In this document: in pieces, positions 44,545-49,614 of the stretch
Numbering within the stretch: position 1 is the stretch's first letter
Layout: each line of letters starts with the position of its first letter
Source of the DNA: Candidatus Rokuibacteriota bacterium
GTDB taxonomy: Bacteria; Methylomirabilota; Methylomirabilia; Rokubacteriales; CSP1-6
Length of the DNA: 64,000 bases
Direction of reading: 5' to 3'
NCBI GenBank assembly: GCA_005887895.1
Contig: VBPC01000272.1
Span: 5,561 to 69,560 of the forward strand
Position numbers and translations under genes: made by a program
Notes under the pieces: generated by a model
What the model saw: only the letters and a program-made list of their open reading frames with translations
Told to the model about the DNA's origin: nothing
Databases searched by the model: none

Positions 44545-45330
44545 GTGAGCGCGGACATCCTCGTGCAGCACGACGGCGCGGTCGCGACGGTCGTCCTCAA
44601 CCGGCCGCGCATGCGCAACGCGATCAACCTGGCGATGTGGACCGAGCTGGCCCGCCTCACCGAGGGCCTGGTCAAGGACGACTCGGTCCGCGCGGTGGTC
44701 TATCGCGGCGCCGGCACGGAGGCGTTCGCCTCCGGCGCCGACATCTCGGAGTTTCCCGAGAGCCGCAAGGACACCGAGACCTCGCAGCGCTACAACGCGA
44801 CGACGGCGGCCGCCTACCGCGCCGTGCGCGAGTGCCCCAAGCTGACGATCGCGATGATCCACGGCTTCTGCATGGGCGGCGCGATGGGGCTGGCGATGGC
44901 GTGCGACCTGCGCTTCGCCGCGGAGGGCTCGAAGTTCGGGATCCCGGCGGCGCGGCTGAGCATCGTCTATCCGCCGGAGGCGATCGGCCAGCTCGTCGAC
45001 CTGGTCGGTCCCGCCTACGCCAAGGACATCCTCTTCTCCGCGCGGACGGTGAGCGACCGCGAGGCGCTGGCCATCGGGCTCATCCAGCGGCTCGTGCCCG
45101 GCGGCGAGCTCGAGCGCACGACCGACGAGTACCTGGCGCTGGTGGCCGACAACGCGCCGCTGTCGGTGCGCGGGTCGAAAGCCTCGATCCAGGCCTACCT
45201 GGCCGGCTTCACCGACGAGAGCCGCGCGCGCCTGCGGGCGCTGTCGATGGAGGCGGTCGCCAGCGAGGACTACCGGGAAGGCACGCGCGCCTTCCTCGAA
45301 AAGCGACGGCCGAAGTTCCAGGGGCGCTGA
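44545..45330 (+). CDS. Enoyl-CoA hydratase/isomerase (crotonase) family protein
   Basis: 261 aa from GTG 44545. NRPRMRNAIN, the GADISEF oxyanion region and FCMGGAMGLAMACDLRFA are present. Confidence 0.85.
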   Translation: MSADILVQHDGAVATVVLNRPRMRNAINLAMWTELARLTEGLVKDDSVRAVVYRGAGTEAFASGADISEFPESRKDTETSQRYNATTAAAYRAVRECPKLTIAMIHGFCMGGAMGLAMACDLRFAAEGSKFGIPAARLSIVYPPEAIGQLVDLVGPAYAKDILFSARTVSDREALAIGLIQRLVPGGELERTTDEYLALVADNAPLSVRGSKASIQAYLAGFTDESRARLRALSMEAVASEDYREGTRAFLEKRRPKFQGR

Positions 45331-45338
45331 GCCCCGGC

Positions 45339-46439
45339 GTGCGGTTTGCGTTCCTGAGCTCCACGCCGGCCGGCCCCACCGAAGGCAGCGGCACCTGGGT
45401 CGCCCTCGACGGCCTCGCCCGCGGCCTCGAGCGACTCGGTCACACGGTCACGCGGCGTCCGCTGCGGGCGCGGACGGGCTTTCACACGCTCGACCGCTGG
45501 CTCTACAACGCGCAGGTCGCGGCGAGGCCGCCGGCTGCCGACGTCGTGGTCGGCGTGGACCTGGACGGCTGGCTGTGGGCGCGTCCGCGGATTCGCCGTC
45601 CGGGCGCCGTCGCTGGGCCGCCGGCGGTCCGGGCGAGACCGCGGTTCGTGGTGGCGCTCAAGGGGATCATCGCCGACGAGCTGCGCAACGAGCAGGGCGT
45701 CGTGCGCTGGCTGCTGGCGCGGCAGGCCCGCTGGGAACGGCTCAACACCGAGCGGGCCGATCGCGTGGTCGTGCCGAGCCGCTACTCCGCGGCCGTGGCC
45801 CACGACGTCTACGGCGTGCCGCGCGCGCGGCTGGCCGTCGTGCCGGAGCCGATCGACCTCGGCGAGTGGCGTCGCCGCTTCACCGTGGCCGGCACGCCGC
45901 CGCCGCACCCGCCGACCGTGCTGTCGGTGGCGCGGATGTACCCGCGCAAGCGGCTCGACGACCTCCTGCGGGCCGCCGGGGTGCTCCGCGAGCGAATCCC
46001 CGGCGTCCGGGTCCGCATCGTAGGGGAGGGGCCGGAGTCTGCGCGCCTGCGCGCGCTGCACGGGGCGCTCGGCCTCGGCGAGACCGTGACGTTCCTCGGC
46101 GACATCCCGCGCCAGGCGCTCGCCGTAGAATACGTGGGTGCGGACTGCTTCTGTCTGCCCACCGTCCAGGAGGGATTCGGCATCGTGTTCACCGAGGCGA
46201 TGGCGGCCGGGCTGGCGGTGGTGGCGTGCCGGGCGGCGGCGGTGCCGGAGCTCGTGGAGGACCGCCGCACCGGCTTGCTGGTGAATCCGCGGAGCCCCGA
46301 GGAGCTGGCCATGGCGCTGGAGACGCTGCTGCTGAACCGCGGCCTGCGCGCCGATCTCGGCGCGGCCGGCGCCGCGCGGGTCGGCGCCTTCGACCTCGAG
46401 CCGGTCGCGCGCCGCTTCGTGGAGGCGGCCACGGCATGA
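45339..46439 (+). CDS. GT-B glycosyltransferase (GT4/GT1-like)
   Basis: 366 aa from GTG 45339. The C-terminal motif PTVQEGFGIVFTEAMAAGLAVVA...VEDRRTGLLV is the E-x7-E-type glycosyltransferase signature. Confidence 0.8.
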   Translation: MRFAFLSSTPAGPTEGSGTWVALDGLARGLERLGHTVTRRPLRARTGFHTLDRWLYNAQVAARPPAADVVVGVDLDGWLWARPRIRRPGAVAGPPAVRARPRFVVALKGIIADELRNEQGVVRWLLARQARWERLNTERADRVVVPSRYSAAVAHDVYGVPRARLAVVPEPIDLGEWRRRFTVAGTPPPHPPTVLSVARMYPRKRLDDLLRAAGVLRERIPGVRVRIVGEGPESARLRALHGALGLGETVTFLGDIPRQALAVEYVGADCFCLPTVQEGFGIVFTEAMAAGLAVVACRAAAVPELVEDRRTGLLVNPRSPEELAMALETLLLNRGLRADLGAAGAARVGAFDLEPVARRFVEAATA

Positions 46440-46843
46440 GCGGCACCGCGTCCACCACGCGGCGCTTCACGTTCGCGGCCGGCCACCGCTATCACGTGCC
46501 GGCGTGGTCGGCCGACGAGAACGCCCGCGTCTTCGGACGGCTCGGGGTGTCGCACGGCCACAACTACACGCTCGACGTCTCCGTGCGCGGGCCGATCGAT
46601 CCGCGGACCGGCATGGTCGTCGATCTCGGCGAGCTGAAGCGGGTCGTGCAGGAGACCGTCATCGAGCGCTTCGACCACGCCGACCTCAACGCCGACGCGC
46701 TGTTTCGCGACCGCGTGCCGACGACGGAGAACATCGCGCTCGCCGTGTGGGAGCTGCTGGCGCCCAAGCTCGGGCCCGACCGGCTCGCCCGCGTCCGCGT
46801 CTGGGAAGACCCGACGCTGTTCGTGGACTATGATGGAGCGTGA
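46436..46843 (+). CDS. 6-pyruvoyl-tetrahydropterin synthase/QueD-fold protein, Cys-less paralogue
   Basis: 135 aa with an ATGA overlap. FAAGHRY and SHGHNYTLDV provide the Zn-His ligands. The protein contains no cysteine at all. Confidence 0.75.
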   Translation: MSGTASTTRRFTFAAGHRYHVPAWSADENARVFGRLGVSHGHNYTLDVSVRGPIDPRTGMVVDLGELKRVVQETVIERFDHADLNADALFRDRVPTTENIALAVWELLAPKLGPDRLARVRVWEDPTLFVDYDGA

Positions 46844-46844
46844 G

Positions 46845-47258
46845 ATGACCCGCACCGTCGAGCTCACGCGCGTCTACCACTTCAGCGCGGCGCACTGCCT
46901 CGAGAATCCGCGGCTGAGCGCCGCCGGCAACGCCGCCCTCTACGGGCCGTGCGCGCGGCCCCACGGCCACAACTACTATCTCGAGGTCACGGTGGCCGGC
47001 GTGCCCGACCGCACCACCGGCATGGCCGTCGACCTCGAGGATCTCGATCGCACCGTCGAGCGTTGCATCCTCGAGCAGGTCGACCATCACCAGCTGGAGC
47101 GGGCGCCGGCGCTGGCCGGCGTCATCACCACCGGCGAGGGACTGGCCCGCGCGTTCTGGAGTACGCTGGTAACGGCGCTGCCGCCGGCGCGCCTGCGCCG
47201 CGTGGTCGTGCAGGAGACGGCGAAGAACCGGTTCGAGTACCGGGGTGGGGAGGCCTGA
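46845..47258 (+). CDS. 6-carboxy-tetrahydropterin / 6-pyruvoyl-tetrahydropterin synthase (QueD/PTPS) with a CxxxHGH motif
   Basis: FSAAHCL and [13 protein letters not shown] are present. I chose ATG 46845, which lies 2 nt after the upstream stop and is preceded by GGAGCG. ATG 46830 is an alternative start. Confidence 0.8.
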
Positions 47259-47836
47259 TGCCCGAGCGCGACCCGATGGAGCGTCACGTGGAGCAGCTCC
47301 TGAAAGAGCTGGGCGAGGACGTCCACCGCGAGGGCCTGGAGCGCACGCCCGCGCGCGTGGCGGCCGCGCTGCGCTACCTGACGTCCGGCTACGACAAGAA
47401 CGCGCACGACATCCTGAACGACGCCCTCTTCGTCGAGGAATACGACGAGATGGTGATCGTGAAGGACATCGACGTGACGTCGCTCTGTGAACACCACATG
47501 CTGCCCTTCATTGGCAAATGCCACGTGGCCTACATGCCGCACCGGAGGATCGTGGGCCTGTCGAAGATCCCGCGCCTGGTGGACATGTTCGCTCGACGGT
47601 TGCAAGTGCAGGAGCGGCTCACGACCCAGGTCGCCAGTACGTTGAACGACGTGCTGCAGCCGCGCGGCGTGGCCGTGGTCATCGAGGCGGTTCACCTCTG
47701 CATGCTCATGCGCGGCGTGGAGAAGCAGAACTCGAAGGCGGTGACCTCGGCGATGCTCGGCGCCTTCCGCGACCGGCCGGAGACGCGCGCGGAGTTCATG
47801 GAGCTGATCAAGGCCGGGCGGGGGCTGCAGATTTGA
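47258..47836 (+). CDS. folE: GTP cyclohydrolase I
   Basis: 192 aa. The conserved blocks are [19 protein letters not shown] and HLCMLMRGV. Confidence 0.9.
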
Positions 47837-48555
47837 GCGCCGCGCTGGCCGGCAAGGTCGCCCTGATCACCGGCGCCGGGCGCGGCATCGGGCGGGCGAT
47901 CGCGACCGCGTTCGCCGCCGAGGGCGCCGCGGTGGCCCTGGCCGCCCGCTCGCGCGCGGAGCTGGCCGAGGTGGCGGCCGAGGTCCGCGCGCGTGACGGC
48001 CGCGCGCTGGCGGTCCCGACCGACGTCACCCAGGACGGCGCGGTGGAGGCGCTGGTCGAGCAGACGCTCGCCGACCTCGGCCGCCTCGACATCCTCGTGA
48101 CCTCCGCCGGCACGGCGGCGTTCGGGCCGGTGGCCGACTCGAAGCCGGCGGACTGGGACGGGATGCTGATGCTCAACCTGCGCGCCGTGATGGTGTGCTG
48201 CCGCGCGGTGCTGCCGGCGATGATCCGCCAGCGCTCCGGCACGATCCTCAACGTGTCGTCCATCGCGACGAAGCGCGCGCTGCCGGGCAGCGCCGTCTAC
48301 ACGGCGACCAAGGCGGCGATCGAGAGCTTCAGCCGCGTGCTGGCCGAGGAGCTGCGGGCGCACGGCGTCCGGGTGGGCGTCCTCGTCCCCGGCGCGGTGG
48401 ACACGCCGATCTGGGACGCGCTCGGCTCGACCCCGCCGCGCGACAAGATGCTGAAGGCCGAGGACGTGGCGCGAGCGGCCGTGCTGATGGCCACGCTGCC
48501 GCCGCACGCCTCGCTCGAGGAGCTCACGCTCCTGCCCGCGGGGGGGATCCTGTGA
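47833..48555 (+). CDS. SDR-family oxidoreductase (sepiapterin-reductase-like by context)
   Basis: 240 aa from TTG 47833, which overlaps the folE stop. TGAGRGIG is the Rossmann motif, and the catalytic S...YxxxK is present as YTATK. Confidence 0.8.
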
Positions 48556-48936: not shown

Positions 48937-49614
48937 GTGCGCGTCCGGGTCCACCTCTTCGCCCGGTATCGTGAAGCCGCCGGGCAGGAGCAGGTGGACC
49001 TCGACCTTCCCGAGGGTGGCACCGTGGAGACGGCCTGGTCGGCCGTCGTCTCCCGTCACCCACAGCTCGAGCAGTACCGTCCCTTCACGCTCTTCGCCGT
49101 CGGTCACGACTACGTCGAGGCCGATCATCGCCTCAAGGCCGGCGACGAGCTGCTCCTCTTTCCGCCGGTCAGCGGCGGGTCCGGCCCCGGCCCCGACCTC
49201 TTCGAGGTCGTCGAGCGTCCGCTGTCGCCCGACGACATCGCGGCCCGCGTGGACGATCCCGGCGCCGGCGGCGTCGTGATCTTCTCCGGTGTCGTGCGCA
49301 ACGAGACTGGCGGCCGGCCGGTGAAGTTCCTCGAGTACGAGGCCCACGCGCCGATGGCCGAGGCGAAGATGCGCGAGATCGGCGCCGCCATCCGCGCGCG
49401 CTGGCCCGGCGTCCGGCGCGTGGCGATGCTCCACCGCATCGGCCGGCTGGAGATCGGCGAGTCTTCCGTCCTCATCGCCGTCTGCGCCGCGCATCGCGCC
49501 GAGGCGTTCGAGGCGTGCCGGTACGCGATCGACACGCTCAAGCGCACCGTCCCCGTCTGGAAGAAGGAGCACTTCGAGGACGGCGAGGTCTGGGTGGGTC
49601 TGCAGGGAGGCTAG
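48937..49614 (+). CDS. Fused MoaD-MoaE molybdopterin synthase (MoaX-like)
   Basis: 225 aa from GTG 48937. The N-terminal ThiS/MoaD fold ends in FPPVSGG, followed by an SGPGPD linker and a MoaE domain (GAGGVVIFSGVVRN..., VWKKE). Confidence 0.75.
   Translation: MRVRVHLFARYREAAGQEQVDLDLPEGGTVETAWSAVVSRHPQLEQYRPFTLFAVGHDYVEADHRLKAGDELLLFPPVSGGSGPGPDLFEVVERPLSPDDIAARVDDPGAGGVVIFSGVVRNETGGRPVKFLEYEAHAPMAEAKMREIGAAIRARWPGVRRVAMLHRIGRLEIGESSVLIAVCAAHRAEAFEACRYAIDTLKRTVPVWKKEHFEDGEVWVGLQGG

Follow-up and report, generated by a model that had tools for sequence, protein, structure and literature searches.

Five genes at positions 45339-48555 of a 64,000-nucleotide stretch of DNA from a Candidatus Rokuibacteriota bacterium of the phylum Methylomirabilota (the whole stretch is called the window here) raise the question of whether they form a pathway to a glycosylated pterin. 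They lie head to tail on the + strand and encode a glycosyltransferase of family 4 (GT4), two proteins of the 6-pyruvoyl-tetrahydropterin synthase (PTPS) fold, here PTPS1 and PTPS2, GTP cyclohydrolase I (FolE) and a short-chain dehydrogenase/reductase (SDR). Cyanobacteria, green sulfur bacteria and Sulfolobus are known to contain pterin glycosides. From gene order, phylogeny and protein comparisons we hold it to be slightly favoured that the operon makes a biopterin-type 6-substituted tetrahydropterin from GTP and probably glycosylates the product. The pterin core of the operon is likely to be what it seems, and the chances that the pterin is the sugar acceptor appear evenly balanced.

The module and its glycosyltransferase slot

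In every gene-bearing genus of the window's family the genes keep the order ECH-GT4-PTPS1-PTPS2-FolE-SDR, where ECH is a crotonase (enoyl-CoA hydratase), although within-family synteny of this kind could, taken alone, be inherited. The sister families of the same order also retain ECH, the PTPS pair and FolE together with the genes downstream, and in most cases the SDR, but they possess a glycosyltransferase of family 2 (GT2) instead of GT4 before PTPS1. This GT2 is a polytopic membrane protein of 380-395 amino acids, and its nearest families are the hopene-associated HpnB (185-191 bits) and the carotenoid 2'-O-glycosyltransferase CruG (134-153 bits). Both scores are far under the respective family cut-offs (379 and 600 bits), so the GT2 represents a separate subfamily.

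The best 120 matches of the homologue searches with GT4 and with PTPS1 comprised near relatives only, and the distant contexts come from a locus search with a PTPS1 profile against species-representative genomes, which recovered 80 loci. All 23 loci of Methylomirabilota have the PTPS pair and 22 have the SDR, with GT4 in 21 and GT2 in two of them. The PTPS pair is likewise present in 48 of the 50 loci from Acidobacteriota, where a glycosyltransferase is found just upstream in 48 (GT2 in 46 and GT4 in two), FolE in 46 and the SDR in 33. Both loci from Chloroflexota show PTPS pair-FolE-SDR (SDR in 2/2), and the five from Gemmatimonadota have a single PTPS, accompanied by FolE in four loci and by the SDR in four; no glycosyltransferase was detected in the loci of these two phyla. 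The flanking genes vary by phylum (Cu-ATPase and TruB, GNAT, or MarR and Suf), and hence the module itself is the conserved unit. A literature search found no published description of such a cluster in Methylomirabilota or Acidobacteriota. In one locus from Terriglobia (L101:5912-12002) the GT2-PTPS-PTPS unit is present twice in tandem, followed by a single FolE-SDR.

The GT4 orthologues that adjoin the PTPS pair in 21/23 Methylomirabilota loci have 56-93% identity. The two acidobacterial GT4s (loci L075 and L106) align over their full length with the window's GT4 at 42-43% identity and share its N-domain motifs. They also find it as their best match in the window's genome, where it scores 200-213 bits and the next paralogue 77, and are its orthologues. 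The window's GT4 belongs to a subfamily of its own that is linked to the pterin module. As for the GT2, its orthologue is restricted, among 41 relatives, to genomes that have the PTPS pair and are without GT4, always adjoining the pair; none was found in the window's genome. In the relatives without the PTPS pair neither GT4 nor GT2 was found. The two enzymes are therefore mutually exclusive in the slot, and wherever one of them occurs it adjoins the PTPS pair. That two unrelated glycosyltransferases track the pterin genes in this manner is good genomic evidence, and the strongest in this analysis, which suggests that glycosylation belongs to the pathway. The original prediction had tied the glycosyltransferase to the pterin genes, and this association holds across two phyla, with GT4 or GT2 strictly co-occurring with the PTPS genes.

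The lineage of the PTPS pair

A second question is to which branch of the PTPS/QueD fold the two proteins belong. PTPS1 (46436..46843, + strand; PF01242, E = 1e-33) and PTPS2 (46830 or 46845..47258, + strand; PF01242, E = 7e-29) both have rat PTPS as their best PDB match, with 100.6 and 87.6 bits respectively, against 46 and 38 bits for E. coli QueD. Both score 61-63 bits with the QueD family TIGR03367, below its cut-off of 89. The Zn-binding His triad, the Asp-His pair and the pterin-binding Glu (H17, H40, H42, D80, H81 and E124), all retained by PTPS1, are invariant in 25/25 aligned sequences. When PTPS1 and PTPS2 were joined into one query, many dual-domain proteins of 268-290 amino acids and triple-domain proteins of 422 amino acids were recovered, aligned over ~96% of the length; such proteins occur in Chloroflexia, Binatia, Bacillaceae, Nitrospirota and cyanobacteria. 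PTPS2 scores 94-116 bits against the C-domains of the dual-domain proteins and 64-82 bits against their N-domains.

The same division appears in a maximum-likelihood tree of 49 sequences. One clade, the N-type (98/92), unites the Methylomirabilota PTPS1 with the N-domains of the dual-domain proteins and with the first PTPS gene of Acidobacteriota and Chloroflexota, and another, the C-type (95/91), unites PTPS2 with the C-domains and with the second PTPS gene of these phyla. Neither clade includes rat PTPS or the single PTPS genes of Gemmatimonadota. PTPS1 and PTPS2 hence correspond to the N-type and C-type halves of a dual-domain bacterial PTPS-II in unfused form, and they belong to the biopterin-type lineage and not to QueD. 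According to its title, a study by Kong et al. 2006 (FEBS Lett 580:4900, cited in PMC3546692) concerns single- or dual-domain PTPS orthologues that make tetrahydrobiopterin (BH4) in bacteria. The pair has the same fold and Zn site as QueD/PTPS-I, but differs in scoring far higher to mammalian PTPS and in its position in the PTPS-II clades. Moreover, the window's PTPS genes do not cluster with queC or queE, QueC being located on another contig. With both paralogues classified as PTPS-II, with the canonical PTPS-II motif GKCNNPxGHGHNY in both PTPS genes of the acidobacterial and Chloroflexota module, and with the module present in relatives without QueC, the originally predicted biopterin-type core of FolE, PTPS and SDR is supported.

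A role as PTPS-III, the enzyme type that bypasses FolB, was considered for the pair and rejected: the ExxHGH motif is found in neither paralogue, and FolB and FolK are both present in the genome (contig C1), so that no such bypass is needed. A third PTPS paralogue with the motif CExxHGH, a PTPS-I/III hybrid, and an insertion of ~30 residues was observed in genus g17 and in one genus of the window's family (L047:7378-7815 and L048:6981-7424, both on the - strand). It is not present in the window's genome and forms a distant outgroup in the PTPS tree. In the triple-domain PTPS of cyanobacteria (P0249 from Nostoc and its relatives, 421-422 amino acids), domain 1 is without the Cys and without one His of HGH (FPGQGHNY).

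The proposed pathway and the evidence that weighs on it

The pathway that we propose would begin with FolE (47258..47836, + strand), whose family assignment (TIGR00063, 258.6 bits against a cut-off of 181.6; PF01227, E = 1e-76) predicts the conversion of GTP to 7,8-dihydroneopterin triphosphate. PTPS1 and PTPS2, given their lineage, may then act as a hetero-oligomer that yields 6-pyruvoyl-tetrahydropterin, in which the general-base Cys would be supplied by PTPS2 only. The SDR (47833..48555, + strand; TTG start; PF00106, E = 6e-60) is a classical one with the catalytic tetrad N-S-Y-K and a cofactor signature of the NADP(H) type, TGAGRGIG...AARSR. It could reduce the side-chain keto groups with NADPH to tetrahydrobiopterin, a stereoisomer or a partly reduced analogue. 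Finally, as its strict genomic linkage suggests, GT4 would use an NDP-sugar as donor to glycosylate a hydroxyl of the side chain and thereby form a pterin glycoside; in the sister lineages and most Acidobacteriota the membrane GT2 would do this step instead. The operon would also feed folate, and PTPS2 may add QueD activity.

Several observations weigh against this pathway, and they concern each of its enzymes as well as the rest of the genome. The published signature of PTPS-II is CxxxxxHGH, and that of QueD is CxxxHGH (PMC5041015). In PTPS1 the motif is RLGVSHGH, with Leu at the position of the catalytic Cys, and L or V is found there in all Methylomirabilota orthologues. The motif of PTPS2 is CARPHGH (CxxxHGH), where the Cys is kept but lies two residues nearer to HGH, which is the spacing of the QueD type. 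A 2-residue loop deletion is present in both proteins, and neither has the PTPS-II signature CxxxxxHGH, which the acidobacterial and Chloroflexota orthologues do have. By the published motif alone PTPS2 would be taken for QueD, which the wider comparison contradicts. Its CxxxHGH arises by deletion within a protein of the PTPS-II lineage, and PTPS1 does not have this motif. The loss of the Cys in PTPS1 and the 2-residue deletion in both genes are derived and are fixed throughout Methylomirabilota. PTPS1 is strongly constrained, with 43 invariant columns across the order, and is therefore not a decaying copy. A PTPS that is split in this way, with one half Cys-less, offers a natural experiment on the sharing of active sites between the subunits of hexameric PTPS.

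GT4 (45339..46439, + strand; GTG start) is a retaining-type enzyme with the GT-B fold, assigned to family GT4 by PF00534 (E = 5e-38) and the N-domain PF13439; no NCBIfam equivalog reaches its cut-off. Its AlphaFold2 model (pLDDT 84.5) has two Rossmann-like domains, and the best Foldseek matches are all GT4 enzymes, namely MshA, a mannosyltransferase, GlgM, sucrose-phosphate synthase (SPS), PglA, BshA and PimA. Kinship to BGluT, the BH4 glucosyltransferase of Synechococcus (PDB 5zer/5ze7), was judged by rank in the PDB sequence, profile and fold searches. BGluT scores 31 bits in phmmer, against 65 for the best match. A profile of the GT4 subfamily gives it 57 bits and the best match 121; BGluT then stands at about the 33rd place in the PDB list and is aligned only in the donor-binding C-domain. 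In the fold search it is not among the best 50 for the GT4 model. Dozens of other GT4 enzymes are thus at least as close to the window's GT4 as BGluT is, and it is outside the BGluT family; on this point the original interpretation is not supported. If the window's GT4 glycosylates a pterin, it was recruited independently, since it is outside the BGluT family and the enzyme of Chlorobium, CtPGT, belongs to GT1.

The comparison with known systems shows where the module agrees with and departs from them. The pathway to BH4-glucoside in Synechococcus sp. PCC 7942, which consists of GTP cyclohydrolase I, a bacterial PTPS-II, sepiapterin reductase activity and BGluT/PgtA, resembles the module in its FolE, an enzyme of the PTPS-II lineage, a reductase and a GT4-family (GT-B) glycosyltransferase. 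It differs in that the window's GT4 shows no specific kinship to BGluT, in that PTPS is split here into two genes, one Cys-less and the other with a shortened loop, in the placement of the genes in one operon with the only folE of the genome, and in the host, which is a non-phototrophic soil bacterium. The tepidopterin of Chlorobium tepidum is made from L-threo-BH4 by CtPGT, an inverting GT1/AviGT4-like enzyme (PMC5683033). The logic is alike, that is, a bacterial biopterin-type pterin is glycosylated on its side chain by a GT-B enzyme, as proposed for the window, but the CAZy family of CtPGT is other than that of the window's transferase, and the window's SDR is without specific similarity to solved sepiapterin reductases. 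A further counterpart is the GT2-PTPS-PTPS-FolE-SDR operon of Acidobacteriota (Terriglobia), with an orthologous PTPS pair, the same order of FolE and SDR, and a glycosyltransferase directly upstream. In that operon, however, the transferase is usually the membrane GT2, with a GT4 orthologue in 2/50 loci only, both PTPS proteins keep CxxxxxHGH, and the flanking genes differ. Relative to the known pterin-glycoside pathways, the novelty lies in the transferase families and in a PTPS that is split and has one Cys-less half.

The evidence on the SDR also counts against the pathway in part. Sepiapterin reductase is absent from the best 60 PDB sequence matches of the SDR, which are headed by clavaldehyde dehydrogenase, acetoin reductase and FabG, and no sepiapterin reductase model occurs in its top NCBIfam list. 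The nearest NCBIfam is NF005672 (229 bits, below the cut-off of 234). Orthology is clear only to the SDRs of genus g17 and of Roseiflexus, and by best hits it is ambiguous to those of Acidobacteriota and Gemmatimonadota. The SDR, originally predicted to be of the sepiapterin-reductase type, is hence not a recognisable sepiapterin reductase, and we regard it, by its position, as a candidate side-chain ketoreductase acting in place of one.

The results on BH4 use elsewhere in the genome likewise count against the pathway. A search of the window's genome with the phenylalanine hydroxylase family (Biopterin_H) gave no match. The sole gene for pterin-4a-carbinolamine dehydratase (PCD) adjoins a molybdenum (Mo) enzyme; the neighbours at C298:16430-19235, read from their translations, are presumably a sulfite-oxidase-like molybdoenzyme, a small cytochrome c and an NHL-repeat protein, followed by PCD. 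This context points to a role related to the molybdenum cofactor and not to a hydroxylase. Lying beside such a Mo enzyme, PCD says nothing on the use of BH4, and no BH4-using enzyme was identified.

The sugar might also go to a different acceptor. It is conceivable, although unlikely in our view, that the glycosyltransferase is functionally linked to the module but serves a lipid or envelope acceptor, with an unglycosylated tetrahydropterin taking part in that process as its cofactor or signal. The alternative GT2, polytopic and membrane-bound, is closest to HpnB and CruG, whose acceptors are known or presumed lipids, a resemblance that is one more point against a pterin acceptor; the lipid mannosyltransferase PimA is among the matches of GT4, which in turn is without specific similarity to BGluT. 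However, GT2 is by its scores a subfamily separate from both of these families, no lipid-synthesis genes are conserved with the module, and the top structural neighbours of GT4 (MshA, GlgM, SPS and BshA) use small soluble acceptors. Furthermore, the exchange of a soluble GT4 for a membrane GT2 in one slot fits a shared small cytoplasmic acceptor more simply. Even less probable seems a product other than a biopterin-type pterin, in which the QueD-spaced PTPS2 would form 6-carboxy-tetrahydropterin or another cleaved pterin that is decorated by the SDR and the glycosyltransferase; we consider this very unlikely. The fixation of the CxxxHGH deletion and of the Cys loss in Methylomirabilota does suggest a chemistry altered from that of the canonical acidobacterial enzymes, but the rest of the operon is orthologous to and collinear with an acidobacterial module bearing canonical PTPS-II motifs, and a carboxy-pterin would offer no keto group to the SDR and no side-chain hydroxyl to the glycosyltransferase.

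Housekeeping synteny could be a simpler explanation of the locus, with FolE and PTPS2 serving folate and queuosine, PTPS2 being QueD, PTPS1 degenerate, and GT4 and the SDR unrelated neighbours (for example of cell-wall or fatty-acid synthesis). FolE is a single-copy housekeeping gene, a further point against a dedicated pathway: the whole-genome search gave one PF01227 match and did not find FolE2, and being the only copy of GTP cyclohydrolase I it must also feed folate. PTPS2 has the QueD motif, and the IscA, MoaD-MoaE and TilS genes downstream are housekeeping genes. The original prediction also took the absence of queC, queE and queF as an argument against a QueD role, which is true of the window but fails for the genome. 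QueC (contig C179) and QueF (contig C36) are both present, PTPS1 and PTPS2 are the only COG0720 members, and a dedicated QueD was not found in the window's genome. The genome-wide search thus returned QueC, QueF, FolB and FolK, and QueE was not found with a sister-family QueE as query, other QueE types not having been searched. TGT was not found in the window's genome but is present in 22/25 relatives, so its absence is an assembly gap (the host assembly has 352 contigs and is 92% complete). QueC is placed beside a divergent membrane protein (C179:60671-61945) which, from its translation, we take to be YhhQ/COG1738-like and of the queuosine-precursor transporter family. With no queD or queE near QueC, the preQ0 pathway may depend on salvage or on PTPS2, and since the window's own genus has no other COG0720 gene, PTPS2 may possibly also supply QueD activity.

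Against housekeeping as a full account, the order of the module is kept across phyla while the flanks change, both PTPS genes belong to the PTPS-II lineage, PTPS1 is too strongly conserved for a degenerate copy, and the presence of GT4 or GT2 tracks the PTPS pair exactly. Besides, genus g17 has the module and is without QueC, and family f2 has it beside a separate canonical queD-queE-queC operon, whose QueD (motif CAWLHGH) scores only 50-55 bits against the window's paralogues; the module is hence not a queuosine operon. We therefore give little credence to housekeeping synteny as the whole explanation and retain the biopterin-type pathway with a glycosylated product as the preferred one.

A more far-reaching version of the glycosylated-pterin pathway can be offered tentatively, and we regard it as doubtful. 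Two unrelated glycosyltransferase families, the soluble GT4 and the HpnB/CruG-like membrane GT2, may have been recruited independently to one ancient pterin module, widespread in Acidobacteriota and Methylomirabilota as major soil phyla, which would make an undescribed class of pterin glycosides in non-phototrophs. In Methylomirabilota an obligate PTPS heteromer, composed of a Cys-less subunit and a short-loop subunit with QueD activity, might then feed both the pterin glycoside and queuosine. If the conserved pterin operon does have a dedicated glycosyltransferase, pterin glycosides would extend to non-phototrophs in Acidobacteriota and Methylomirabilota, which are among the most abundant and least cultured soil phyla, and one or two new enzyme families for the glycosylation of pterins would be added.

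Gene junctions and neighbourhood

The window has a base composition of 72% G+C. The five genes are tightly coupled, and the overlaps originally reported at 46436, 47256-47260 and 47833-47836 were all confirmed in the sequence: GT4 and PTPS1 share ATGA (46436-46439), PTPS2 and FolE share TGATG (47256-47260), and FolE and the SDR share TTGA (47833-47836). The junction of PTPS1 and PTPS2 is a 14-nt overlap if PTPS2 starts at ATG 46830 and a 1-nt spacer if it starts at ATG 46845; the alignment of orthologues favours ATG 46845, which is possibly the true start. A promoter and terminator scan of the cluster gave no promoter-like sites and no + strand terminator and was uninformative, and no riboswitch or other known RNA was found upstream at the gathering threshold in the window and five related loci.

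The window's FolE is without an insertion that was observed in three other Methylomirabilota genomes (L064:5630-7195, L068:2172-3719 and L069:1701-3218). In these, folE contains an in-frame insertion of ~335 amino acids just before the Zn-ligand motif CEHH. The insertion starts with CVPS, ends with GHN followed by Cys and contains LAGLIDADG-like blocks, features that are typical of an intein bearing a homing endonuclease.

Upstream of GT4, the crotonase gene (44584..45330, + strand; PF00378, E = 4e-45; NF004781, 286 bits) ends 8 nt before the GT4 start. It is syntenic in all Methylomirabilota families examined and absent from the acidobacterial, Chloroflexota and Gemmatimonadota versions of the module; it is a neighbour conserved within the order only and probably lies outside the core module. 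On the 3' side, the SDR is followed by IscA/ErpA, a MoaD-MoaE fusion, TilS and HtrA. The fusion (48949-49614, directly after IscA) consists of a ThiS fold followed by MoaE, and represents a second pterin function, that of molybdopterin, in the gene string of the window. In genus g17 its MoaD and MoaE halves were matched as separate frames.

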